NCBI GenBank assembly: GCA_950054485.1
Contig: CATLPD010000001.1
Span: forward strand, 716,121-780,120
Length of the DNA: 64,000 bases
DNA from: an uncultured Alphaproteobacteria bacterium
GTDB taxonomy: Bacteria > Pseudomonadota > Alphaproteobacteria > Micavibrionales > CSBR16-224
Reading direction: 5' to 3'
Position 1 is the first letter of the stretch; each line of letters begins with the position of its first letter. Below the pieces are notes generated by a model, which was not told the DNA's origin, searched no databases, and was given only the letters and a program-made list of their open reading frames with translations. The translations under genes were made by a program, and so were the position numbers. This document shows positions 24,306 through 35,855 of the stretch, in pieces.

Positions 24306-25559
24306 ATGCAGGATAAAATAAAAACAAAACTAGAAATCTTGGCAGACGCGGCGAAATACGATGCATCCTGTGCATCGGGTACGGCCGGTAAGCGTTCAGC
24401 AAAAAAGGGCGAACAGGGGATCGGCTCCCTGACGGGTGGCACAGGCATTTGCCACAGCTTTACGCCCGATGGCCGATGTGTTTCATTGTTGAAAATCCTG
24501 ATGACGAATTACTGTATTTACGATTGTCATTATTGTATCAACCGGGCCTCCAGCAACGTGCGCCGCGCGCGTTTTACGGTTCAGGAAGTCGTTGACCTGA
24601 CGCTCAATTTTTATAAACGCAATTATATTGAGGGGCTTTTTCTCAGCTCCGGCATTATCAAGTCACCTGATTACACCATGGAATCGATGGTGCGAATTGC
24701 AAAATCTTTGCGCGAAGATCATCATTTCAAAGGCTATATCCACCTGAAGACCATCCCGAATGCCTCACCCGAATTGCAGGAGGAGGCAGGCCTTTACGCC
24801 GATCGCCTCAGCATCAATGTCGAAATGCCGACGGAAAAGGGGCTGAACACCTATGCGCCCGAAAAAAAGCTGAATGAAATTACCGGCGCGATGGGCAAGC
24901 TGGATCATAAAATCACCGAACATAAACAATCGAAATCATACAGCGGCAAACGCCCGCCGCGTTTTGCACCGGGGGGGCAATCGACACAGATGATTGTCGG
25001 GGCCGATGATACGGATGATAAAATCATTCTGGGCTCCAGCGTTTCGCTGTATGACACATATAAATTGCGGCGGGTTTATTATTCGGCCTTCAGCCCGATT
25101 CCGGATGCCAGTATTATTTTGCCGCTGAAACCCGCACCGCTGGTGCGCGAACACAGATTATATCAGGCCGACTGGCTGCTGCGCTTTTATAATTTCAACC
25201 TCGATGAAATTTTGCAGGGCACGATTGATAATATGCTTGATCTTGATTTTGACCCCAAGATGGCATGGGCATTGCGTAACCGTCACGAATTTCCAGTGAA
25301 TCTGAATACGGCCGATAAACATATGATATTGCGCGTGCCGGGCATCGGGGTGCAGACCGCCAATAAGATTATATCAATCCGGCGCTATAGGACATTGCGC
25401 TGGGAAGACCTTGCGAAAATGCGCCTGCCGCTGGATAAGCTGAAACCCTTTATATGTGTTCTGGATTATCGTCCGCCGCCGCATTTGCTCGATTCAAATC
25501 ACCTCTCGCAATTGATGCGCCCGTCACAGCAACTGGAATTATTCGGGGCGGCGACATGA
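24306..25559 (+). CDS. Putative DNA modification/repair radical SAM protein (TIGR03916-like)
   Basis: KLEILADAAKYDASCAS, CxxxCxxC (CIYDCHYC), REHRLYQADWL, HhH RVPGIG. Confidence 0.93.
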   Translation: MQDKIKTKLEILADAAKYDASCASGTAGKRSAKKGEQGIGSLTGGTGICHSFTPDGRCVSLLKILMTNYCIYDCHYCINRASSNVRRARFTVQEVVDLTLNFYKRNYIEGLFLSSGIIKSPDYTMESMVRIAKSLREDHHFKGYIHLKTIPNASPELQEEAGLYADRLSINVEMPTEKGLNTYAPEKKLNEITGAMGKLDHKITEHKQSKSYSGKRPPRFAPGGQSTQMIVGADDTDDKIILGSSVSLYDTYKLRRVYYSAFSPIPDASIILPLKPAPLVREHRLYQADWLLRFYNFNLDEILQGTIDNMLDLDFDPKMAWALRNRHEFPVNLNTADKHMILRVPGIGVQTANKIISIRRYRTLRWEDLAKMRLPLDKLKPFICVLDYRPPPHLLDSNHLSQLMRPSQQLELFGAAT

Positions 25560-26347
25560 TCAATATTATGATCGATACATGCCCCGGTTTTGATCAGTGG
25601 CGTGATGCTGCGCGGCGCTGTATATTAAATGATATTCCGCCCGATCAAATTCTCTGGAAAACGCCCGATCAGGCGCAGGATAGTCTTTTCACGGCAGCGG
25701 ATGAATTGCCACCTGACACACCGGATGAATTCAGCGTGTCCAAGGATTTCATAGATTTGGCCGAAACAGTGATGTGCCATTCGGATAATGCGCGCTTTGA
25801 TATTTTATACAGGTTGTTGTGGCGTATACGTCATGACAATAAAAACCTGCTGAAAATCAAAACGGACAGTGATGTCATGGCGGCAACCAAAATGGTCAAA
25901 GCGGTGCGGCGCGATGCATATAAGATCACTGCCTTTTTGCGCTTTCGCGAGATCGAACTGGATGGCCGCGAACACTATATCGCCTGGTACGAGCCCGACC
26001 ACTATATATTGCAGCGCGCGATCGGGTTTTTCAAAACGCGGTTCAGAAATATGAATTGGTCGATTTTGACGCCTTATTTATCGGCGCATTGGAACGGGCA
26101 GAGCGTTTATTTTGACAGCACGCCCGATAAATCGCTATTGCCTGAACAGGATGATTTCGAAGATTACTGGCTGACCTATTACGCCAGCATTTTTAACCCC
26201 GCGCGCCCCAAGAAAAAGGCGATGCTGACTCAAATGCCGAAAAAATACTGGAAAAATATGCCCGAAACGCGCCTGATCCCCGATCTGCTGAAAACTGCCG
26301 AAGCGCGGACGAAGGAGATGATTAAAAAGTCAGGTGGTGGTGTCTAG
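25556..26347 (+). CDS. TIGR03915/DUF4130-family putative DNA repair protein
   Basis: ATGA overlap with rSAM gene; WRDAAR, LYRLLWR, AFLRFRE, W.EP.H, YYASIFNPAR, MPKKYWKNMPE. Confidence 0.9.
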   Translation: MINIMIDTCPGFDQWRDAARRCILNDIPPDQILWKTPDQAQDSLFTAADELPPDTPDEFSVSKDFIDLAETVMCHSDNARFDILYRLLWRIRHDNKNLLKIKTDSDVMAATKMVKAVRRDAYKITAFLRFREIELDGREHYIAWYEPDHYILQRAIGFFKTRFRNMNWSILTPYLSAHWNGQSVYFDSTPDKSLLPEQDDFEDYWLTYYASIFNPARPKKKAMLTQMPKKYWKNMPETRLIPDLLKTAEARTKEMIKKSGGGV

Positions 26348-26352
26348 GTGAA

Positions 26353-26370
26353 AAAATGGAGCGGTGAAGG
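26353..26370 (-). repeat. att site (duplicate of tRNA-Gly 3' end, 1-nt deletion)
   Basis: AAAATGGAGCGG-TGAAGG vs AAAATGGAGCGGGTGAAGG at 35777-35795. Confidence 0.88.
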
Positions 26371-26433
26371 TCTCGAATTTTATTTTCCATGCCCTTGAAT
26401 TTATTTGATATTAACTGTTTCAAACTTTATTGG

Positions 26434-26453
26434 TGCCCCCATATGTGCCCCCA
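26434..26453 (+). repeat. Integrase arm-type sites (distal end)
   Basis: TGCCCCCA x2 with 12-bp period; same arrangement at 35649-35668 and an inverted copy at 35617-35624. Confidence 0.75.
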
Positions 26454-26466
26454 AGTGGTAAGAATT

Positions 26467-26958
26467 TTATTCATTGGTGGCTTTTTTCATTAAAGTGCAA
26501 AACCAGATTACCAATAAAATTAATACACTTCTAGCCTCTAAAGACTTTACTTTTTTAGGGTCTTTACCTGTTATTTTTGCTGCGCTTTCGTAAGACTTGT
26601 GAAAAATTTCTCTGTCTTTGGTGGATAAAGACTTTAATAAGTTGTTGTACTCTCCAGCGGTAACTTTAAAAGCCCTGTTATGAGCCACGTTATTCCTAAT
26701 GCTTTGCAATGTTTTGGCGAGGCTTAAGATCCGACTGCCTAAGGGACTGAGGTAACAACGGACTAAAGCTAATTTTTGCTCAAAGTTTAATCTTGCGATA
26801 TTGTTCCTGCTTAGGAGCTCCCCATCAATGTTTGGAACGCAAGTTCTTAAAACCTCCTCAATAGCTTCTTCAATAATTAAAAAGCTTTCAATTATCAATT
26901 GTCTATCATCTAGGTCTTTTAGGTAATCATTTATTTCTATGCTATCTAAAATTTTCAT
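26467..26958 (-). CDS. HEPN-like protein
   Basis: Helical protein with IRNNVAH (RNxxxH) motif and N-terminal IIEE. Confidence 0.6.
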   Translation of the reverse strand: MKILDSIEINDYLKDLDDRQLIIESFLIIEEAIEEVLRTCVPNIDGELLSRNNIARLNFEQKLALVRCYLSPLGSRILSLAKTLQSIRNNVAHNRAFKVTAGEYNNLLKSLSTKDREIFHKSYESAAKITGKDPKKVKSLEARSVLILLVIWFCTLMKKATNE

Positions 26959-26983
26959 CACCAAAGCGTTAAATTAATTATCA

Positions 26984-27691
26984 TTAATCATTATAGTGAG
27001 ATTGTATAAAATTGTTAACTAAAGTGTCGAGCTTTTCAAAGAACGCTATCAATTTGTTAAATAGGAGGTCAATGAAAGCTGGTTTTATTGATATGTAATC
27101 AAAATACGTGCCTAAAGTATCTGTCTGCTCTACAAATCTTCTTAATTTATTGTTTTCTTCTGTGGGAATACGCCCACCGCTATGAACTAGAGAGTTTCTT
27201 AGCTTATTTAAATGTCTAATAAAGCTCCATTCATCAGATATTTCATTAACTGGTATTTTAGCGACTTTTGACAAAAATGTTCCCGCGCGTGTAATGCCTG
27301 TGTCTGATAGGTCCTTTAATTTCACACTGCTATCAATGCAATTTTCTAAGATCCAACATAACTCATTTAATTTGTTTTCTAAAAAGCTGTATACAGCCAT
27401 CACAAATGCGTTTCTATGAACATTTGGATATTTGATTTGGTTTTCATGTAAACTGAGACTGTAGTTCTCTATAATATCATCATGCTCTGGCTCAGGTGCT
27501 TGTTCTAAAATTTTATCGATTTTATTTTGCAACTCTTCGTCTTTTTTTCTCCAGAAATTTTCTATTTCATTGTGATAATATTTCAATTCCCTAAGCTCAT
27601 TTGCGGCATGATGGCAATGCCCACACAATCCGTTACCGAAAAAATCTATCTCTGTCACAGTTGCTCCTTTAACCTTAAAAATTTTCGTCAA
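26984..27691 (-). CDS. HEPN-like protein
   Basis: YSFLE..L..LC helix and LRNSLVH..G (RNxxxH) motif; TTG start. Confidence 0.65.
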   Translation of the reverse strand: MTKIFKVKGATVTEIDFFGNGLCGHCHHAANELRELKYYHNEIENFWRKKDEELQNKIDKILEQAPEPEHDDIIENYSLSLHENQIKYPNVHRNAFVMAVYSFLENKLNELCWILENCIDSSVKLKDLSDTGITRAGTFLSKVAKIPVNEISDEWSFIRHLNKLRNSLVHSGGRIPTEENNKLRRFVEQTDTLGTYFDYISIKPAFIDLLFNKLIAFFEKLDTLVNNFIQSHYND

Positions 27692-27898
27692 ATTAAACTT
27701 AGCCGCTTTAAAAGCGGAGGGGGGGGACCCCCAAAGTCGTAATAATATTTCTTAATAAACTACCCTTTCAATGTAGTTTAATTTTTGAAATCAAGTATCC
27801 AGTAATGTCCAACTATGCTTTCGTTAATAATTGTGTTAATAAAAATAAGTTATAAAGATGCCTTATAAAATATAATTTTTGTGAGGACTAGGATAAAG

Positions 27899-28435
27899 AT
27901 GTCATCAAAAATATTAGATATAGAAAGTCATATTGCGGAAATAATAGCATCAGAAAAAGAAGTTCTGGGCCAGCCAGCGTGGCAAAAGGTTTCTAGTAAG
28001 CAAGATTCTTGGCAATTAAAAGCTTCAGTAAGGGCGAAAATAGAGACAGATTTTAAGCTTTCAATTGTATTGGACACCAATGTTAAATGCCCTTTCCAGC
28101 GTGGGTCAATTATTTTGACTTGCAGTTCAGCACCTATTGAGAGGATGGAGCACTGCAACAGGCGTCAGCACGTAAATAAGCTTGATAAAGCAGTTCCAAA
28201 ACATTTAAGAGGGCTTGATATACCACCTGATATATGCCGATATTATTCGTGGGATAATAATAGAAGATATAAATGGCCTAATGCCTCTAGACCACTAAAT
28301 TTACCTGTAAGTGAGCCGATAAGTGAGCTAAACACAAAATTATTTTTTGATAGCGTTAAATATTTCTTAAAAAGAACTAATTTAAAATTAGAAGTACCTG
28401 ATTTACACTATGATGCGAGGTTGGGTCTACAATGA
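27899..28435 (+). CDS. Hypothetical protein (DUF6978-like)
   Basis: IERME..H.N motif, FLKRTNL C-terminus, ATGA overlap with the next gene. Confidence 0.6.
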   Translation: MSSKILDIESHIAEIIASEKEVLGQPAWQKVSSKQDSWQLKASVRAKIETDFKLSIVLDTNVKCPFQRGSIILTCSSAPIERMEHCNRRQHVNKLDKAVPKHLRGLDIPPDICRYYSWDNNRRYKWPNASRPLNLPVSEPISELNTKLFFDSVKYFLKRTNLKLEVPDLHYDARLGLQ

Positions 28436-29205
28436 ACTGTGATATAGAAATTAAAAGAGCTTTAGAAAAGCTTCATGCCTGCGATATTCTTGAGGGTGCT
28501 CAAAGAATATCAACAACCTGTTTGTACCCGGACGGTGCTAGAGTAACGCTGTTTGCATACAGGACACATAAAAACGCAGAATTTGTAGTCACTGATGATG
28601 GAGATGCCTACGAGGTCCTCAGATCATATGGTATTGACACTATTTCAAAGTATACGAAAACGGCACATGACACGGCTAGCAAATTCGATATGAATTTCAA
28701 TAAAGAGCTAAGTAACTTTTATTCAGACCCCGTAACTTCTGAAATGCTGCCAGCTACTATCGCATATCTTGCTAATTGTGTTCAAAAATTTGTTCAGCAG
28801 ATTAATGATAAAATGGAGCTAGAAAATGAAAAGGATATTCGTGAAAGAATAGATGAGTGCCTTGAAAGCTACCATTTAATTCCAGAGCGTAATATTGTGC
28901 GAGATTTTGAGATTATTGGAGATAGCGGAAAGACTCATAATTTTTCTCATGCCATCTTAAGAGAGGAAAGAACTATTCTAGTATCTCCTGTTAGCGACCA
29001 TCATGCATCGATTGCTCCAGCTTATATGAAATTCAATGACGTATACACTCAAAACCCAGATTACAAAAGGGAGGCTGTTATATCTAATGTGTCAGCATGG
29101 GGATCAAATAATCTGAATTTGATCGAAAGCGTTGTTGATAATGTGAATTATATTGAAGAAAAAATGAAGCCGTTCATGAAGAGATATGGATATCTTCAAA
29201 ATTAA
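28432..29205 (+). CDS. DUF1828/DUF1829-like protein
   Basis: ISTT.LYPDG....LF and VTDDGD (DUF1828-like); IIGDSGKTHNF (DUF1829-like). Confidence 0.7.
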   Translation: MNCDIEIKRALEKLHACDILEGAQRISTTCLYPDGARVTLFAYRTHKNAEFVVTDDGDAYEVLRSYGIDTISKYTKTAHDTASKFDMNFNKELSNFYSDPVTSEMLPATIAYLANCVQKFVQQINDKMELENEKDIRERIDECLESYHLIPERNIVRDFEIIGDSGKTHNFSHAILREERTILVSPVSDHHASIAPAYMKFNDVYTQNPDYKREAVISNVSAWGSNNLNLIESVVDNVNYIEEKMKPFMKRYGYLQN

Positions 29206-29264
29206 TTATATTTTTCAATATTTTATATGTACCCCTTCCTAAATCTGTATGGTATTATGATACC

Positions 29265-29621
29265 ATGGATCAAAGCCCCAAAAAACGTGCTGAAAAAGCC
29301 TTTAAAGTCACTTCTCTTAAAACCTTTCTGAGAAACCAAGGAAAGGCTGACAAGGGCAGTGAGGATGTCTTGCGGCGGTGGATACATGACCATGAGCTGG
29401 TCGAGTTTCTATTAAGGGCTGTGAGCGGGGAGGTTTTTAACAACCAGCGTTTAAGTTTGCGTGATCGTTGCAACTTGGCTACCAAGCTTCTCAATAAAAC
29501 ACTTCCTGACATGAAAACTGTGGAGTGTATTCAGTCACCCTCAGATAGCCCTGATGCGGTCACTTATCAGGCAACCCAAAACTTGCTTCAATCCGCTTTG
29601 AACCTGCCTAATAAAGATTGA
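29265..29621 (+). CDS. Terminase small subunit-like / phage DNA-binding protein
   Basis: R...A.KLLNKTLPDMKTVE motif resembles small phage packaging proteins; satellite context. Confidence 0.5.
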   Translation: MDQSPKKRAEKAFKVTSLKTFLRNQGKADKGSEDVLRRWIHDHELVEFLLRAVSGEVFNNQRLSLRDRCNLATKLLNKTLPDMKTVECIQSPSDSPDAVTYQATQNLLQSALNLPNKD

Positions 29622-29652
29622 ATTTCTTAGCATAATTAACGTATATTGGTTT

Positions 29653-29849
29653 TAGGTAAGTGATCGGCTTACTTGGGGCTTGATAACCTCTAACGAGCGG
29701 CCAACAGCATCTGGCCGTAAAAATGATGCTGCTTTCTCGATTAAGTTCGGGATGGCAGCGAAATAAAATAGCGCACTGCGTAAATACGCTGTGCCGTCTC
29801 GTTACGGTTATCAACATCCCGAGCACCAGAGCGATCTGGTGTTTTTTTT
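29653..29849 (+). ncRNA. Candidate highly structured ncRNA
   Basis: TTGAAT-18-TATATT promoter; long closing stem 29673-29701/29793-29822; internal hairpins; terminator GCACCAGA-GCGA-TCTGGTGT-T7. Confidence 0.6.
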
Positions 29850-29869
29850 CTTACAGGAAGGGAAGGTTT

Positions 29870-30262
29870 ATGATCGAGAATAATTCCAAAGATAAAAGAG
29901 AGGAAGTTGCGGCCAATGAAGCCGCATTGAAACTACTTCTAGTAAATGGAGAGATTAAAGAGCTTGAAGCACGTAGACGCGCTGTAATTGGAGTAGGGGT
30001 TTTTGCGCTATTTGTTGGGCTGACTTTTAATTCTTACTTGAGGTCACCAATAGAAGAATTCTGGTGGATTCTGGGTTTTCTAGCGGCGGTCTTATTCTTT
30101 TTTATATGGGAGAATGGGAAATCTATAGATAAAAAAATTAGTTTAAAATTTGATTTTGAGCAATTGATCAAAAAATACGGTTGGGATTTTTCTTACAACG
30201 AAAATAATTATAGAGTTGAATTTAAGCCTTTAAGGACATCTAGACAAACGGACACCCCTTAG
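29870..30262 (+). CDS. Hypothetical two-TM protein
   Basis: ATG 29870 after GGAAGG; two hydrophobic helices. Confidence 0.6.
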   Translation: MIENNSKDKREEVAANEAALKLLLVNGEIKELEARRRAVIGVGVFALFVGLTFNSYLRSPIEEFWWILGFLAAVLFFFIWENGKSIDKKISLKFDFEQLIKKYGWDFSYNENNYRVEFKPLRTSRQTDTP

Positions 30263-30292
30263 GGGGCTGTCTTGTCTTGTCTTAAGGTTGTC
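30230..30292 (-). other. Iteron/palindrome cluster, putative satellite origin and detached 3' end of the helicase gene
   Basis: GACA repeats around GACACCCCTTAGGGGGCTGTC; minus frame reads DNLKTRQDSPLRGVRLSRCP*. Confidence 0.5.
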
Positions 30293-30295
30293 GGA

Positions 30296-31207
30296 TTATA
30301 TTTTATCGCCTTTGTAAAAGTATCCTTTATTAAAAGAGCCAGCTTTTTCACGCTTTTTATACATGAGGTCAAAAAACTCTGATTCTGATTTACCTTTGAG
30401 GCGTGCAATACTTACTATTACCTCTGTCATGTCTGCGAGTTCTTCTAAATCATATTCATCCAAAAACTCACGATATTCTTCTGACAGCTTCTCGTACAGG
30501 GCATTTAGGTGCTGTTTAGGAGATAATTCAGAAATGTCAGGGTCTCTGCCTTCTTTACGAATAATATCTGGTATCTTATCTCGAACTAACTTATTTGATT
30601 TTTTAAAGTCTGTGTTATCTCCCGCTCTTTTGCCGCGATTGCAAGAGGCACATAAAACTTGAAGATTTTCTTTTGAGTGGACATCAATCCATATTTCGTC
30701 TTTGCGGACTTTACCTTTCTGGGCAAGCGATTGGGGAACAATGTGATCAATCTCTAAGGGTGACAAGCTAGATGTAATGCCACATAATTGGCAACGCCCA
30801 CCAGATTCCTTTAATAAGATATAGCGAATTGATGAATCTACGCTCGGGTCACCCTCTCGGTTTTGTTTTTCAATCCATTCACTCATAGCAGCCTCGCAAG
30901 CTTCTATGACACTTTCGCGATATTGTTTTGATACAGAGTAGTTTTTCAGTCGAAACGATTTTAATGTCTTATCGTATTCTATAACGCCATGTTTAAGTAG
31001 CGTCTGTTTAGGATACCTTTTAACAATGTTTTCGTAATACTCAACGGTTGAGAGATCATGTTTAGCAAACGCTTTGGCTAAATCTCTTATTGTGCACTCC
31101 CCGCCATGCTCAATTAACTCACGTATAATTAAGGGCTGATAAATTGCGCTCATCGACATTCGATTATTCACAAACTCTAATAAGTCAGTTTCATTATTTT
31201 TCGTCAT
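30296..31207 (-). CDS. wHTH-HNH endonuclease fused to MazG-like nucleotide pyrophosphohydrolase
   Basis: MS.IYQP..I..L...GG N-domain; CQLCG, EIDHIVP, NLQVLCASCNRGK HNH; KLVRDKIP..I, KL.EE..EF, EELADM.EV, KR...G.F. Confidence 0.85.
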   Translation of the reverse strand: MTKNNETDLLEFVNNRMSMSAIYQPLIIRELIEHGGECTIRDLAKAFAKHDLSTVEYYENIVKRYPKQTLLKHGVIEYDKTLKSFRLKNYSVSKQYRESVIEACEAAMSEWIEKQNREGDPSVDSSIRYILLKESGGRCQLCGITSSLSPLEIDHIVPQSLAQKGKVRKDEIWIDVHSKENLQVLCASCNRGKRAGDNTDFKKSNKLVRDKIPDIIRKEGRDPDISELSPKQHLNALYEKLSEEYREFLDEYDLEELADMTEVIVSIARLKGKSESEFFDLMYKKREKAGSFNKGYFYKGDKI

Positions 31208-31247
31208 TCGATTTTCTATAAGGTTTGATTAATCCAATCTTAATTGC

Positions 31248-31913
31248 CTAAATTTTTGGGTCGGGCGTTTCAATTAAATCTACCGTTTGAATTAAGCCTT
31301 TGGTGTGTAAGTCCGTGATCGCACTTTTGCCAGAGCTTATAAGCAGATCAACATAGCTATGAAAGCTTTCACCACTTGAAGTTCCATCGGCCTGCCACAC
31401 AGTATTTCCATTGCTCAAGTCAATAAGAAGGGATTTTGTAGCCATTATAGGCTCACTTGTTGTGTACCCACCTGTTGTGTAGCCCGGGCTTGTGTATGTG
31501 TTTACAGTTGCAAAATTACCGTAACCTGAAATATAGCTAGTCGTTGTTCCTGCGTGGTAAGTTGGAGGTACAAAGCTTTCTATTTCAGATTTTTCTCCGA
31601 CCATAGTAATAAACAAGCTATCTGCGCCTGTATCTTTAATTATTTTAGCGGCCTCTTTTTCACTGTAATCTCTAGTTGGAGGAATTAAATCTGTATATTT
31701 AATAGCGTCCACGCCTAATGAGCTAAATTTCTCCACCAAAGCGGTTTCGGCTGACAGTACTTCTTTTAAAGTAGCCCCATCAATTTTCACCACAGTTTTG
31801 GTAATTTGGTATCCGCCATCGCTGTAGTCAGGATCAACGAAACTTGTCGTGTCAGACATTACGCATGCTGTTAGCAATAAAACCGATACTAAACAATATG
31901 AAATAATTCTCAT
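31248..31913 (-). CDS. Lipoprotein
   Basis: Lipobox LLTA-C; LIDLSNG.TVW DUF4136-like C-terminus. Confidence 0.75.
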   Translation of the reverse strand: MRIISYCLVSVLLLTACVMSDTTSFVDPDYSDGGYQITKTVVKIDGATLKEVLSAETALVEKFSSLGVDAIKYTDLIPPTRDYSEKEAAKIIKDTGADSLFITMVGEKSEIESFVPPTYHAGTTTSYISGYGNFATVNTYTSPGYTTGGYTTSEPIMATKSLLIDLSNGNTVWQADGTSSGESFHSYVDLLISSGKSAITDLHTKGLIQTVDLIETPDPKI

Positions 31914-32076
31914 TATATCTCCTTTGAAAGCAATTATGTCTTCTAATTAATGGTGGCAATGTACGAGTTTATAGTTTTCTTTTTTATAAACCCTAGGCCT
32001 GTAGGCTTAAAATTATCCTATACATTTTGTATTTGAAGAGCAATTTAGTAATTCAGCATATCTGGCAACCCATGCT

Positions 32077-33114
32077 TTAGGATTTATGGTTTGGTATCCA
32101 GATATAATCACCATAAGTGGCGGTGACCTGTTTCTCATTTAAGCTATCAATAGCTCTTGAAACAGCCTTTCGCACGCTGGATATGTTTTCGGATGCAGAG
32201 ATATTGTTTTTCTCTAAAGCTTCTCTAAAGTCGCTCACCATCACACAATTTTGTTTGGGCATTCCATTTTTTGGCGAATAAGGCTTGGATTTTTCAATTA
32301 TCAAGTCGTACAAAATATCAAGTGCCCGTTTTGTCTGTCCATTAAGACGGGTTTTCTTTCCTGTTAGCGTGTCTCGGCCTTTTACAAGAGCGCAAGACGA
32401 TATTTTGTCGCCATCTGCATCAGTGCCCAAATCAATAACTTTAAGGTTAAAAGTCATGGAAATATCTTTTTTGCCATCGCGCTGTTTACGGGTTTTAATG
32501 GTGAGGTCGCCTGATTTGTTTTGAACTTCGATCTCAGTATCAACCGCCGCTTTTAATGAGCTATGGCCTCTCGCACCTTTGCCACTATCCTTGCCACTAT
32601 GGTGAACAATCAACACGTGAGCTTTCGTATTCTCTCGTATTTTGTCACAGTTTCGGACAAAAGAACCCATGTCACGAGAAGAATTTTCATCTCCCCCAGA
32701 CATCGCTCGATTTAGGGTGTCTACAATGATAAGTGAAAAAGCCCCAAGTTTTTGAACGGCATCTATCAGCCGATCTGTATCGGTGCTGTCTTCGCCACAT
32801 AAATCAATTCCTGAGGGCAAAATATAAAGCTCTCCCTTTGATTTGAGTTGGTGATGTATCTCAAAGGCTCTTAGCCTCTCCCCAATGCCCAAACCGCCTT
32901 CGGTAGCAATATATAAAACAGAGCCTTGTTTCGATTTCAGTCCTTGCCAATCCATCCCTGTGGCAATATGTGCGGCAATATCTAATACAAAGAATGTTTT
33001 ACCGCTATTGCTCTGGCCATAAACTACGCTAAGGGCGTTTTTATCTAGGAGTGATTTTACTAGATATTCTTTTTTTGGTAGCTTGTGAAGGTCTTTCCAG
33101 TGTGTGATTTTCAT
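32077..33114 (-). CDS. RepA-like SF4 helicase (AAA_25)
   Basis: GQSNSGKTF Walker A, YIATEG, IIVDTL Walker B, GDEN, VHHSGKD, ARGHSSL..AVD. Confidence 0.9.
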   Translation of the reverse strand: MKITHWKDLHKLPKKEYLVKSLLDKNALSVVYGQSNSGKTFFVLDIAAHIATGMDWQGLKSKQGSVLYIATEGGLGIGERLRAFEIHHQLKSKGELYILPSGIDLCGEDSTDTDRLIDAVQKLGAFSLIIVDTLNRAMSGGDENSSRDMGSFVRNCDKIRENTKAHVLIVHHSGKDSGKGARGHSSLKAAVDTEIEVQNKSGDLTIKTRKQRDGKKDISMTFNLKVIDLGTDADGDKISSCALVKGRDTLTGKKTRLNGQTKRALDILYDLIIEKSKPYSPKNGMPKQNCVMVSDFREALEKNNISASENISSVRKAVSRAIDSLNEKQVTATYGDYIWIPNHKS

Positions 33115-33129
33115 GCTGAGCGCCCCCCT

Positions 33130-33516
33130 TTACAAAATTGAATGTTCATTGGAAGGGTAGACGACGGGGAGATCTCCTTCTTTTCTATATTTAATATCGA
33201 AGCCGATATTTAGATATGAAACTGCACAATAAACATGAAAGAAATGAATTCCTTCTTCTTGATCGTATGTTCTATTTGCCCACTTAATTACAGAATACAT
33301 GTGAGCGAGTTCTTGACCATTTCTAAATTTGCCTTGGGGAGTGATTATTGACTTTAGGAATGTGATTGCCTGAAGGGTGTGGTGGTGCGATTTGCGACCT
33401 AGAAGGTAAGGCTCTTCGGTTATATCTCTTTTTTCTCCTCTGTAGCCCGACAGGGACAAGTGAGGCTCTTCTTCAAGTATTTTCAAAACAAGTTCTTTAT
33501 ATGCTTCGTATTCCAT
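33130..33516 (-). CDS. Hypothetical satellite protein
   Basis: ATG 33516 after SD GGAGG within the alpA end; between alpA and helicase. Confidence 0.65.
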   Translation of the reverse strand: MEYEAYKELVLKILEEEPHLSLSGYRGEKRDITEEPYLLGRKSHHHTLQAITFLKSIITPQGKFRNGQELAHMYSVIKWANRTYDQEEGIHFFHVYCAVSYLNIGFDIKYRKEGDLPVVYPSNEHSIL

Positions 33517-33517
33517 T

Positions 33518-33715
33518 TTATACCTCCACACCGTTGATTTTGTGTTCAATCCATAAATCAATATCAGCTTCAAGCCAGCCCACAGCTTTTTCACCTAAAG
33601 AAATTTGTTTTGGAAAAGTATTTTTCTGGATGAAAGAATAAATTGATGATCTAGAGAGCCCTGTTCTTTCTATTACTTCGGGAAGCCTTAATATTCTTCT
33701 GTTTTGTTTTTGCAT
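33518..33715 (-). CDS. alpA: AlpA-family regulator/excisionase
   Basis: RILRLPEVIERTGLSRSSIY..I....FPK.I.LG.KAVGW. Confidence 0.93.
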   Translation of the reverse strand: MQKQNRRILRLPEVIERTGLSRSSIYSFIQKNTFPKQISLGEKAVGWLEADIDLWIEHKINGVEV

Positions 33716-33803
33716 TTTTAGCCTTTCTTGGTTCTGTTAATAACTCAACATATCCAAGCGGCTATCCCAGTAATATAAGTCCAGTAATAATTGGGAAAAA
33801 AAA

Positions 33804-34448
33804 CTATAAAATTGGTTTCTCTCTATAAAAACTGTTTATAAGGCTCTTAATTTCTAACTTCTTCTGGGGTGATGCAAGGCTGTAATCTATGGAAAGTAGC
33901 CTCATTTTAGCCTTTGAATAACGATTTTGAAGTTTTTTTAGCGTGTCTAAGGAGTCTCGCATTTCGGGAAGGCCTTTCCAAGGATGGCTCTCAATTATCT
34001 TTGCCAATGCCGCTTTATCGCTAATTTTAGTGTCTTGCTGCTTAATCTCATCTACATCAATAAATAATTTGGCGTATAATAACTCGTCCCACACAACTCT
34101 ACGCCTTTTGGGGTTGTTGAATTTAACCTCAAATCCTCTAATGAAATCACAGGCTATATCTAATGCGAAATTATGTAGGGACTTTGTAGAGGCGTATCCA
34201 TAATAGTCTTGCAATATAAGAAGTTTTCTCAAGCGTTCTTTTTTAATATGAGTTGCTATTCTTTTTTCCCACTGATCACGCGCCTTCTTCATGTCGGCAA
34301 GAATTTTTATAAATATGGCGGCTCTATTGTTTTCAGAAGTCCCTAAAGCACTTTTAAAACAATTAAGAAAGGGAGTGGAATCAAACATGTCTATGCTAAT
34401 TTCTTTGTATAATTCCTCTGGTAGCTTGCTATTTTTTCGCTTGCTCAT
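33804..34448 (-). CDS. Hypothetical satellite protein
   Basis: 214-aa basic ORF overlapping the integrase 3' end. Confidence 0.65.
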   Translation of the reverse strand: MSKRKNSKLPEELYKEISIDMFDSTPFLNCFKSALGTSENNRAAIFIKILADMKKARDQWEKRIATHIKKERLRKLLILQDYYGYASTKSLHNFALDIACDFIRGFEVKFNNPKRRRVVWDELLYAKLFIDVDEIKQQDTKISDKAALAKIIESHPWKGLPEMRDSLDTLKKLQNRYSKAKMRLLSIDYSLASPQKKLEIKSLINSFYREKPIL

Positions 34449-35616
34449 CTATATAATCTGCCCATTCTTGCATCATAACTCTACGTTCATCTAGAAATTT
34501 AGCTCTATCGTATGCGCGCGTAACCATGCTTTTAGCGGCGTGTGCCAGTTGTCGATCAATAACCTCGTGCCGGTAACCAAGTTTTTCTTTGATTGCGCTC
34601 ATGGCTAAGGCTCTAAAACCGTGACCTGTCATGCGGTCTTTGAAGCCTAACCTATGCAAGCCCATTCTTATTGTATTATTGCTCATATGTTTGCGTGGCG
34701 AATGATGGCCTGGCAATATCCATTCCCACTGCCCATTCATCTCCTTTAAGTCGGTTAGAATTTCTACGGCTTGTCTTGATAGCGGCACGATGTGCTCTTT
34801 ACGCATTTTCATGCGCTCAGCAGGGATAATCCATTCTGCTTCTTCTAGATTGAATTCTGACCATTTTGCTTCAATTAGCTCTTTTGTTCTTACAAAAGTT
34901 AGCATGAGAAGTTTCATGGCGTGGCGAGTCTCTAACCGAAGGCATGCTTCGTTACGTTCCATAGCTGACAAGAGTTCTGGTAATTCATCAATCGCAATGC
35001 AGGGATAATGCTTTCTAACTATTGGTTTTATGGCTTCTGATAGCTCTGAGGCAGGGTTGTACTCGCAATATCCGTGGGCGATGGCATATCTGAATATTTG
35101 CCCACAAGACTGGCGCATTCTATGCGCGGGCTCTATCGCGCCTCTTTTCTGTATGCGTTCTAGACAATTTAGAATTTGCGGGGGCTTAATATCTGTTATT
35201 GGAAGGTGACCAATTTGGGGGAAAATATCACGTTCTAGTCGGCCAAGTACGGTTTTTGCGTGTCGCGCTGTCCATTTGGACTTAATGTTTTCATGCCATT
35301 CGCGAGCAATAGCTTCAAAATTATTCTCAGCATTTTGCTCTGCTAGGCGTTTCTTTTCCTGTTTGTAAAGCGAGGGGTCGATATTTTGATCAAGAAGTCT
35401 TCTAGCGTCTGTGCAACGATCATCCGCTTCTTTGAGGGATATCTCGGGATAAACACCTAGGGCAAGACGCTTTTCCTTGCCGTTTATACGGTATTTCATA
35501 CGCCAATATTTGCTTCCGTTGGGTCTGACCTCAAGGTAAAGGCCGCGCCCAACCGCTAATTTATAAGGCTTCTTTCTAGGTTCAGCATTCTTACACTGCA
35601 GATTCGTGAGCTTCAT
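34429..35616 (-). CDS. P4-type tyrosine integrase
   Basis: Arm-binding domain GLYLEV.PNGSKYWR; catalytic R (FVRTKE), HGFR, LAH, AY. Confidence 0.96.
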   Translation of the reverse strand: MKLTNLQCKNAEPRKKPYKLAVGRGLYLEVRPNGSKYWRMKYRINGKEKRLALGVYPEISLKEADDRCTDARRLLDQNIDPSLYKQEKKRLAEQNAENNFEAIAREWHENIKSKWTARHAKTVLGRLERDIFPQIGHLPITDIKPPQILNCLERIQKRGAIEPAHRMRQSCGQIFRYAIAHGYCEYNPASELSEAIKPIVRKHYPCIAIDELPELLSAMERNEACLRLETRHAMKLLMLTFVRTKELIEAKWSEFNLEEAEWIIPAERMKMRKEHIVPLSRQAVEILTDLKEMNGQWEWILPGHHSPRKHMSNNTIRMGLHRLGFKDRMTGHGFRALAMSAIKEKLGYRHEVIDRQLAHAAKSMVTRAYDRAKFLDERRVMMQEWADYIDEQAKK

Positions 35617-35780
35617 TGGGGGCATCACCTTTGCGTTGTTGAAGTATATGCCCCCACCAGTGCCCCCAAATATTGTGGATTTGGCAACATCTCATTGGAT
35701 GGCTACAGATTAATTATACGCTGAATCCCTTAATAAATAAAGAAAAACTGGACTGTTTAGGATTTTATTGGATGAGAAAA

Positions 35781-35855
35781 TGGAGCGGGTGAAGGGATTC
35801 GAACCCTCGACTTCAACCTTGGCAAGGTTGCGCTCTACCCCTGAGCTACACCCGC
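35781..35855 (-). tRNA. tRNA-Gly(GCC)
   Basis: Reverse complement GCGGGTGTAGCTCAGGGGTAGAGCGCAACCTTGCCAAGGTTG...GTTCGAATCCCTTCACCCGCTCCA. Confidence 0.97.

Follow-up and report, generated by a model that had tools for sequence, protein, structure and literature searches.

Two mutually exclusive folds in a c4/sRNA-Xcc1-like RNA ahead of a cargo gene on an alphaproteobacterial integrative island

What kind of RNA is encoded at positions 29618-29849 of a 64,000-nt stretch of contig CATLPD010000001.1 (GenBank assembly GCA_950054485.1; an uncultured alphaproteobacterium of the order Micavibrionales), and what could it regulate? We refer to the whole stretch as the window. An earlier note, made from the letters alone, had described the element as a self-contained, potentially switchable RNA peculiar to a satellite and outside any recognised family. 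It had offered three functions: an antitoxin or guide for neighbouring HEPN or HNH nucleases, an RNA interfering with a helper phage, or a switch for the gene that begins 20 nt past its terminator. Here we compared the element with its homologues; comparative results rest on 35 aligned family members unless stated otherwise. The comparison showed two mutually exclusive predicted folds, both kept by selection, and it is probable that both are functional. The RNA is very likely a structured RNA of the c4/sRNA-Xcc1 type. With somewhat better than even confidence, we propose that a small transcription unit on a mobile island, of the c4, sRNA-Xcc1 or P4-CI type, has this element as its leader RNA.

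Two folds of one RNA

The element, all features of which are on the plus strand, begins with a sigma-70-type promoter (TTGAAT-18-TATATT, 29618-29647) matching 9 of 12 consensus positions in a consensus scan. Its score alone was not above chance (2 sites in 1.5 kb versus 4.0 expected). A TTG..-16/18-TA...T pair scoring at least 8/12 occurred at a like position in 20 of the 35 homologous loci versus 7 of 34 control windows, and in 15 of those 20 the end of the -10 box lay 22-29 nt before alignment column 1. The transcript would start near 29653. It would open with a 5'-terminal hairpin, P0 (UAGGUAAGU/GCUUACUUG, 29653-29675), which belongs to the minimum-free-energy fold; a hairpin of variable sequence ends at the matching position in nearly all 35 homologues. 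The 5' arm, or target module (29675-29697), follows with a local hairpin, GGGG-CUUGAUAA-CCUC, whose loop is word b1 (29680-29687), and with word a1 (UAACGAG, 29691-29697), which is single-stranded after that hairpin. Next come the small hairpin P2 (CGGCCA/UGGCCG, 29698-29717; helix 6 of the masked-fold alignment introduced below), its competitor P2' (CAGCAUC, 29705-29711, with GAUGCUG, 29725-29731) and the masking strand Y (GCUGCUUUCUCGA, 29728-29740).

The tRNA-like small-RNA domain (29745-29828) is the part that resembles c4 and sRNA-Xcc1 and that matches RF02221. An acceptor-like stem (29745-29753 with 29816-29824) encloses hairpin 1, hairpin 2, whose loop is word a' (CUCGUUA, 29798-29804), and a linker with word b' (UUAUCAA, 29808-29814). 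The discriminator A29825 and CCA (29826-29828) complete the domain. A 3' hairpin with intrinsic terminator, GAGCACCAGA-GCGA-UCUGGUGUUU plus a U run, occupies 29821-29849 (29821-29844 in the terminator scan, then the U run); the hairpin shares its basal nucleotides with the end of the acceptor 3' strand, and the CCA lies within it. The homologues share this order: after the 5' hairpin come GGGG-CUUNNNAA-CCCC, a word of 7-8 nt, a small hairpin and a C/U-rich strand, then the sRNA-Xcc1-like domain, N-CCA and the 3' hairpin. Internal-loop sequences are conserved as AUGUCCA/AAAG or AAUAMAAU/UAAAUA. In the CCA, both Cs were invariant (35/35) and the A nearly so (33/35), inside a stem whose other positions covary.

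The plus strand of 29652-29849 folded at -86.9 kcal/mol, against a shuffle mean of -54.2 (z -7.86; none of 200 shuffles as good), whereas the minus strand reached -71.9 kcal/mol, so that the plus strand folds better by 15 kcal/mol. The minimum-free-energy fold holds the 5' hairpin, a long closing stem (29673-29701 with 29793-29822), the inner hairpins and the terminator. A coding role of the region (open reading frames, ORFs, at 29723-30262 on the plus and 29608-29826 on the minus strand) was rejected, since conservation tracks base pairs and not codons.

In the fold of lowest energy, which we call masked, a1 and b1 are paired to a' and b'. Strand Y, the C/U-rich strand, covers the 5' strands of the acceptor stem and of hairpin 1 in a pairing rich in G-U, and two further segments, the 5' GGGG and the distal strand of the 3' hairpin, pair with the acceptor 3' strand. 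In the alternative, open fold, the 5' half forms the GGGG/CCCC hairpin, which presents the complementary b1 in its loop with a1 just 3' of it. The 3' half forms a stem with a first G-C pair and 7 bp that extend to 8-9 bp, two hairpins, a discriminator base and CCA, and exposes the hairpin-2 loop word (a') and the linker word (b') ahead of the 3' strand of the stem.

Covariation, which the earlier note had suggested examining in homologues, supported the masked fold on an alignment fitted by model to that fold with its closing stem: 93.4% of cells were paired and 36 of 55 pairs had changed on both sides. The covariation score was 0.559 versus 0.226 in shuffles (0/500 reached it) and at most 0.119 with the partners slid; the 35 sequences are related, so that the shuffle statistics overstate independence, while compensating changes are still many and at many positions. 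Helix 7, made by strand Y, was 96.1% paired with 9 of 14 pairs changed on both sides, helix 10, the 3' hairpin, was 97.4% paired, and every pair of a1 with the 3' domain occurred as four pair types. The masked fold was the minimum-free-energy fold in 34 of the 35 sequences and lay below the best fold with an acceptor stem in all 35, by 19 kcal/mol on average.

The open fold left its own traces in the same alignment, which was not fitted to its stem. The acceptor stem (TCGGGAT/ATCCCGA in the window, as DNA) was 96.8% paired, with four pairs changed on both sides. Pair 99:205 was GC in 13, AU in 12 and GU in 6 sequences, pair 101:203 was CG in 22 and UA in 10, and pair 106:196 appeared in all four Watson-Crick types (AU 17, UA 11, GC 3, CG 1). 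Several strands covaried with two alternative partners. For column 203 the partners are column 101 when the fold is open and column 3 when it is masked (the latter pair CG 16, UA 10, UG 6); for column 205 they are columns 99 and 242, and columns 99-101 can pair with 203-205 or with 82-84. In the local stem of the 5' arm, pair 4:23 was GC in 26, GU in 5 and AU in 4 sequences and never unpaired, whereas the competing pair 4:202 fails in the four sequences with A at column 4. Such three-way covariation, with one strand and two alternative partners, is rare and clean evidence of a natural two-state RNA.

We further compared each strand with its own partner and with the partners of the other 34 sequences, a cognate-partner test that needs no exact column register. 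All tested helices of either fold preferred their own partner, with the exception of the hairpin-2 stem. For the acceptor stem the mean energies were -16.2 kcal/mol with the own partner and -10.9 with others, for the outer stem of hairpin 1 -8.4 and -6.0, for P2' -7.5 and -3.2 (own partner among the best 3 of 35 for 20 of the 35 sequences) and for P3 -20.5 and -15.4. The discrimination was also marked for the words: a1:a' gave -8.5 versus -1.2 kcal/mol (own in the best 3 of 35 for 34/35) and b1:b' -7.6 versus -2.7 (24/35). The hairpin-2 stem did not discriminate (-5.6 versus -4.9; 4/35), and a negative control remained at chance level (-2.9 versus -3.1; 2/35).

Many G-U pairs can form on the plus strand only, for example 80:103, which is UG in 31 of 35 sequences; the element is therefore read as RNA, in the direction of the cargo gene. 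With these results, the promoter, hairpins, closing stem and terminator that the earlier note had placed on the sequence were all found where it had put them, and its view of a self-contained, switchable, plus-strand RNA with a mutually exclusive set of helices (P2' and the acceptor stem) was borne out.

The two folds also compete at the 3' end. The terminator hairpin averaged -17.1 kcal/mol when complete and -8.5 once the acceptor stem forms; in most members, formation of that stem also separates the hairpin from the U run by 2-4 bases other than U. About 24 of the 35 members have a U run directly after the 3' hairpin, and in about 11 it is poor or absent.

Could the masked fold be the sole functional form? 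The element would then be a stand-alone small-RNA gene, for instance for a protein-binding or sponge RNA, and the cargo would ride on leaky termination. The stability of the masked fold, lowest in energy in 34/35 and ahead by about 19 kcal/mol, points in this direction, as do the strong terminator of the window copy and the conserved internal loops, which could bind a protein. Such a gene does not account for an acceptor stem whose covariation comprises four pair types even though the alignment was not fitted to that stem, nor for the own-partner preference of P2' and of hairpin 1's outer stem, both of which are confined to the open fold. It is also at odds with the invariant C-C-A within an otherwise covarying stem and with the placement of the cargo gene: an ORF of at least 30 aa begins 2-31 nt past the element in 34 of 35 loci, its start sits at a fixed 13-31 nt after the hairpin, and 32 of the 34 have a Shine-Dalgarno-like stretch. 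We consider a stand-alone gene unlikely.

A metabolite- or protein-sensing riboswitch would likewise present a terminator, unpaired loops that are conserved and two exclusive folds, and a multi-copy, island-linked element might be a repeat at the DNA level, such as a miniature inverted-repeat transposable element or a recombination site. The cargo genes, however, share no function (27 of 34 proteins have no Pfam family and the other seven are mutually unrelated), which is not expected of a metabolite sensor, whose downstream genes would belong to one pathway tied to a single ligand. Ends bound by a transposase or recombinase stay constant, whereas the arms of this element vary between copies with compensating changes, and both the plus-strand G-U pairs and the 15 kcal/mol advantage of the plus strand speak for RNA. 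Either explanation appears most improbable to us, and we retain two folds of an RNA.

A family with private pairing words

In a permissive Rfam scan, 29745-29832 aligned to RF02221 (sRNA-Xcc1) over model positions 1-87 of 87 with 46.7 bits (E 3.8e-7). The gathering score of that family is 53 bits, and at Rfam gathering thresholds the window yielded two tRNAs only. The idea that the RNA matches no family thus held at the gathering score and gave way below it. The same model found six sub-threshold matches in the genome of the window (2.28 Mb, 12 contigs). Their flanks revealed that the whole unit of about 190 nt, beyond the 3' part, is common to the copies. From these six copies we built a model of 179 positions, R1, which found 8 strong copies in this genome, matched 42 of 61 genomes of the same order (the own genome counted in; up to 13 copies per genome) and 26 of 150 other families of the class (a tally that counts an unpublished genome, G100). 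Across the phylum, 10 of 150 other genomes matched at E <= 1e-5, six of them outside the class and weakly. An RNA special to one satellite, as initially supposed, is not compatible with this distribution or with the c4-like layout described below.

None of 40 homologous loci reached the sRNA-Xcc1 threshold of 53 bits, the best of the 40 scoring 43.0. Because no member reaches the Rfam threshold, standard annotation would leave the family unnamed, and so an unannotated family, present up to 13 times per genome, stands ahead of many island genes of unknown function. A pattern scan of genome contigs with a gap of 70-100 nt (two members, counted by hand, have 69 and 70) gave nine loci, one of which was confirmed (L116, 61.9 bits), and a scan of IMG/VR with a loose pattern gave 13 loci, none confirmed by R1 at E <= 0.001. 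For window positions 29200-30400, 12 runs were listed, of marine metagenome and with the type recorded as guessed DNA, none of them as RNA. Two members had noteworthy surroundings: a tandem pair of the window's family lies at G025:C1:63339-63751, and in a related genome a SAM-I/IV riboswitch (60.1 bits, above threshold; L021:1088-1179) lies about 320 nt upstream of a family member.

The pairing words a and b behaved differently from the rest of the element. In the 11 closest pairs of members, the a1/a' blocks were 50% identical, whereas the same pairs were 88% identical elsewhere, and the eight copies in the own genome carry eight different a1 words. The words are hypervariable between copies and yet, as judged from predicted pairing, matched within each copy.

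We then looked for further partners of these words. A second target (a2/b2) downstream was not found: local alignment of the 5' arm of each of the 35 members scored 12.1 against its own downstream 200 nt and 12.2 against those of other copies. A search of the genome with the words of six own-genome copies returned only the arms themselves and three exact matches to words of the window copy; these three lie inside ORFs judged by eye from their translation to be housekeeping genes, one ClpA-like. Single a-like or b-like words near genes of the window were at chance level. Duplex prediction between whole RNAs and cargo starts gave -44.4 for own pairs and -41.2 for other copies (sd 9.4), with unrealistically long duplexes and no clear signal.

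These searches bear on the possibility that a processed small RNA acts in trans on transcripts of another replicon, be it a helper phage, a rival island or another copy of the same island that superinfects, in a P4-type immunity or interference in which the 5' arm would be a mask or decoy. Words that are hypervariable and always self-matched would suit such a role; an excerpt of PMC5320573 reports that P1 and P7 immunity specificity works through such matched words, and according to part of PMC4825925 the CI RNA of P4 pairs with seqA upstream in the same leader. Moreover, five of the six own-genome copies examined lie in integrase/recombinase islands. The sixth has core genes on both sides, a SpoU methylase gene on one and rpsD on the other, and speaks against such a role, as do the failure to find an a+b site elsewhere in the own genome save the chance matches inside housekeeping ORFs and the 0/13 confirmed matches in IMG/VR, where the pattern was loose. 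Action on another replicon seems rather unlikely on balance, and we continue with an RNA whose partner is its own leader.

Island, cargo and a possible mode of action

The window copy resides on an integrative island of 9.4 kb (26349-35788). Its ends form a 16-nt direct repeat (26349-26364 and 35773-35788, 15/16 bases identical), the right copy of which is the 3' end of a tRNA-Gly(GCC) gene; on the left the island begins directly past a DUF4130 gene. What the earlier note called a satellite is an integrative island at a tRNA gene, and a phage-satellite nature would be a further supposition. The island genes encode an integrase, an AAA_25 ATPase, an HNH protein, a protein like PDC-M24B and the products of two ORFs with Rx4H motifs.

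Behind the element, a Shine-Dalgarno stretch (AGGAAGGGAAGG, from 29856) precedes the cargo ORF (29870-30262, plus strand), which encodes 130 aa with two predicted membrane segments. This protein has no Pfam family, and a word-indexed search of 5.8 billion clusters returned only the protein itself. The gap between the end of the terminator at 29849 and the ORF start leaves no room for a promoter. Elsewhere the cargo varies widely. The proteins with a family include two Mrr_cat, a GIY-YIG, a Sel1-repeat and a DUF2846 protein, further cargo comprises lipoprotein-like proteins and operons with a ParB-methylase gene, and 22 of the 34 proteins carry a hydrophobic segment. No neighbouring protein family recurred in the 35 loci (1.5 kb on each side) except two, each in 5-7 loci, apparently ParB-methylase and DUF5681 at own-genome loci. 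Neither an HEPN nor an HNH gene recurs beside the RNA, and the suggestion of an antitoxin or guide for such nucleases received no support from this comparison.

A more general version of that suggestion is that the downstream protein is toxic and the RNA its antitoxin or translational silencer, as in type I or type III toxin-antitoxin systems; the toxin of the window would be the 130-aa protein with its two membrane segments. The hydrophobic segments in 22/34 cargo proteins would fit, and there are precedents: an excerpt of a preprint (10.1101/2025.06.18.660453) places sRNA-Xcc1 upstream of the toxin gene symE in Xanthomonas integron cassettes, and the c4 RNA of P1 silences icd, a cell-division inhibitor. 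Our data do not agree well with this, as the cargo is very diverse (lipoprotein-like proteins, two Mrr-type nucleases, GIY-YIG, Sel1-repeat, ParB-methylase operons) and the RNA has no complementarity to the translation start region of the cargo. We regard an antitoxin as very unlikely.

For the leader RNA that we favour instead, the mode of action could be as follows. The element's own promoter would give an RNA of about 200 nt with the two exclusive folds, of which the open one would form first, locally, during transcription. Bacterial RNase P recognises a 3' RCCA, and the open fold has features consistent with a substrate of this enzyme: a 7-bp stem that starts with a G-C pair, a discriminator base and the invariant CCA. 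RNase P might cut the open fold before G29745 and release an antisense RNA of about 80 nt; judging from these features, we give such processing an even chance. Molecules that escape the cut would relax to the masked, inert fold via contacts between the exposed words. The freed small RNA, by means of its private a/b words, would recognise newly made transcripts of its own element, and no others, by their arm. The fold present when the polymerase reaches 29840 would set read-through into the cargo gene, since formation of the acceptor stem would halve the terminator hairpin and move it away from the U run. The feedback could run in either direction. Control of the cargo through the terminator remains tentative, at somewhat less than an even chance. 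Of the three functions named in the earlier note, a switch for the following gene fits best: the folds are switchable and an ORF follows the element in nearly all loci, and the control itself is our reading of these facts.

Several observations weigh against this proposal. The transcript, the ends of the RNA and its processing are predictions from sequence. The open fold is less stable by about 19 kcal/mol and would therefore have to be a kinetic or assisted state. Termination control cannot hold family-wide, as the U run is poor or absent in about 11 of the 35 members. A contact of a2/b2 with the cargo ribosome-binding site, the defining effector contact of c4, is missing, and an effect of the small RNA on the cargo would need some other route. 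The 46.7 bits of the window copy are the highest in the family and are still below the Rfam threshold for sRNA-Xcc1, kinship among the 35 sequences inflates the shuffle statistics, the c4 RNA of P1 does not end in N-CCA, and 3 of 10 bona fide sRNA-Xcc1 loci inspected lack the CCA.

A wider and rather doubtful idea is that each island carries a private RNA "address" of about 7+7 nt and that the tRNA-like small RNA recognises only its own leader, as part of a general RNA-based system of island identity in small marine genomes. If this were true, the independent RNA circuits of a cell would equal its modules in number, 8-13. Any one of them would gate a single accessory gene, give P4-style immunity to another copy of its island or act on a helper phage, and the system would rest on a self-masking precursor armed by RNase P. 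The private words would in any case be a ready set of RNA-RNA pairs predicted not to cross-react.

Other genes around the element were noted in passing. Two adjacent minus-strand ORFs of the island (26467-26964, 165 aa; 26984-27691, 235 aa) have the Rx4H motifs RNNVAH and RNSLVH and a HEPN-like look; they gave weak PADLOC matches only and no Pfam family above cutoff, the 165-aa ORF having one sub-threshold match to L27_2. Of two overlapping plus-strand genes (27881-28435 and 28432-29205), the second matched the PADLOC candidate defence protein PDC-M24B (E 3.7e-12) and the first had no match. Just outside the left end of the island, 24306-26347 (plus strand) encodes a radical-SAM/HhH protein and then the DUF4130 protein. 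Two further copies in the same genome (L009 on G000:C7 and L010 on G000:C4) lie on islands built like that of the window: a P4-type integrase and PrimPol-DUF5906 or AAA_25 are on one strand, and the RNA and its cargo are on the other, converging on the integrase-side genes.

Relation to known RNAs

The closest likeness in layout is with the c4 RNA of the immI region of phages P1 and P7, which appears as the motif c4-a1b1 in a table by Weinberg 2010 (PMC2864571, in part). In the P1 record (AF234172) the order is promoter P1c4, a1, b1, the 77-nt C4 RNA, a2, b2 and icd. As in the window, a promoter, a 5' hairpin and two words lie upstream of a small RNA. This small RNA has two hairpins within a closing stem, and the upstream words are complementary to its loop and linker (b1/b', a1/a'). 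The P1 leader (L121, 48230-48440) folds with z -5.4: it forms a 5' hairpin, pairs a1/b1 with the loops of c4 and covers the 5' strand of the c4 closing stem with a strand from upstream, and so takes a masked shape like that of the window's family. Excision of c4 from a longer transcript by RNase P is described in an excerpt of PMC5320573. The differences are equally clear. The c4 model RF01695 gave no match at E up to 10 in 29400-30000. c4 has a2/b2 over the downstream ribosome-binding site, which the window's family lacks; the P1 c4 ends in ...CCACC and runs straight into a2, whereas the family has N-CCA and then a hairpin or terminator; and c4 precedes icd-ant, whereas the element is multi-copy and precedes diverse cargo.

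With sRNA-Xcc1 (RF02221) the similarity is one of sequence model: the 3' 88 nt of the window element align to the whole model, including the closing stem, the two hairpins and an internal loop of the AAUAMAAU type. According to part of the preprint cited above, sRNA-Xcc1 occurs in Xanthomonas integron cassettes and lies upstream of symE in the most widespread of them. It is also associated with transposons and plasmids, and its function is described in the literature as unknown. Bona fide sRNA-Xcc1 (at least 53 bits) was present in 5 of 151 genomes of the class (the own genome and the unpublished G100 among them). A 5' arm was recognised by eye at loci L070, L094, L076 and L077 and by model R1, with 22-37 bits, at L072, L096, L076 and L074. 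A second copy of the words, a2/b2, lies right at the start of the next gene, with 20-nt matches at L076 and L077, and at L070 and L094 the downstream a2 word covaries with the loop word a'. Because these loci carry the 5' arm and a downstream word copy at the start of the next gene, sRNA-Xcc1 is, from its predicted pairing, a c4-type module, and the 87-nt model of Rfam covers only the 3' part of a c4-like leader that measures some 180-200 nt. Targets in the manner of c4 at the start of the next gene suggest a concrete mechanism for this small RNA. Bona fide sRNA-Xcc1 mostly has no U run, whereas the window's family mostly has a terminator and lacks a2/b2. As a separate observation, three bona fide units stand in tandem, 994 nt apart, at G074:C1:749745-751817.

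The P4 likeness rests on the published description and not on a comparison of sequences or models. An excerpt of PMC4825925 describes a CI RNA that is processed from an untranslated leader, pairs with seqA and seqC and causes termination. In P4, as in the window element, the complementary site lies upstream of the small RNA in the same leader. P4 CI controls premature termination ahead of the downstream genes; the window element has a terminator ahead of its cargo on an integrase-bearing island. P4 has the downstream seqC, for which no equivalent was found in the own downstream 200 nt of the family. It also has replication genes downstream, with the alpha primase, whereas the cargo here is of a non-replication kind, and the island carries an AAA_25 ATPase.

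IsrK of the Gifsy-1 prophage offers another comparison. As stated in the same excerpt, one promoter gives a terminated small RNA and a read-through mRNA for the downstream ORFs, and the short form acts on the long one (PMC4825925). The anatomy of the window element is comparable, with a terminator, then an ORF and no room for a promoter, and the two isoforms would here be predicted ones. The isrK model (RF01394) gave no match in the permissive Rfam scan of the element, and where the short form of IsrK acts on the long form, the downstream part of the window's family holds no site for the small RNA that we could find. The Group 1 C4-like small RNAs of Acinetobacter baumannii, finally, have many copies per genome and a variable a' region, and a longer transcript that includes an upstream region seems to be the precursor of their c4-like 3' part (PMC5320573, in excerpt). 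They are recognised by the Rfam c4 motif, whereas the window's family is not, and the likeness is by description only; two-fold masking, N-CCA and the fixed cargo ORF were shown for the window's family and not for the A. baumannii RNAs.

In conclusion, the element belongs to a branch of the c4/sRNA-Xcc1 leader RNAs that is multi-copy, bears a terminator and is devoid of the downstream target: the variant is new and the kind is known. It poses the question of what a c4-type RNA regulates when its sole partner is its own leader, next to c4 with its a2/b2 at the ribosome-binding site, sRNA-Xcc1 with its word copies at the start of the next gene and P4 CI with its seqC.

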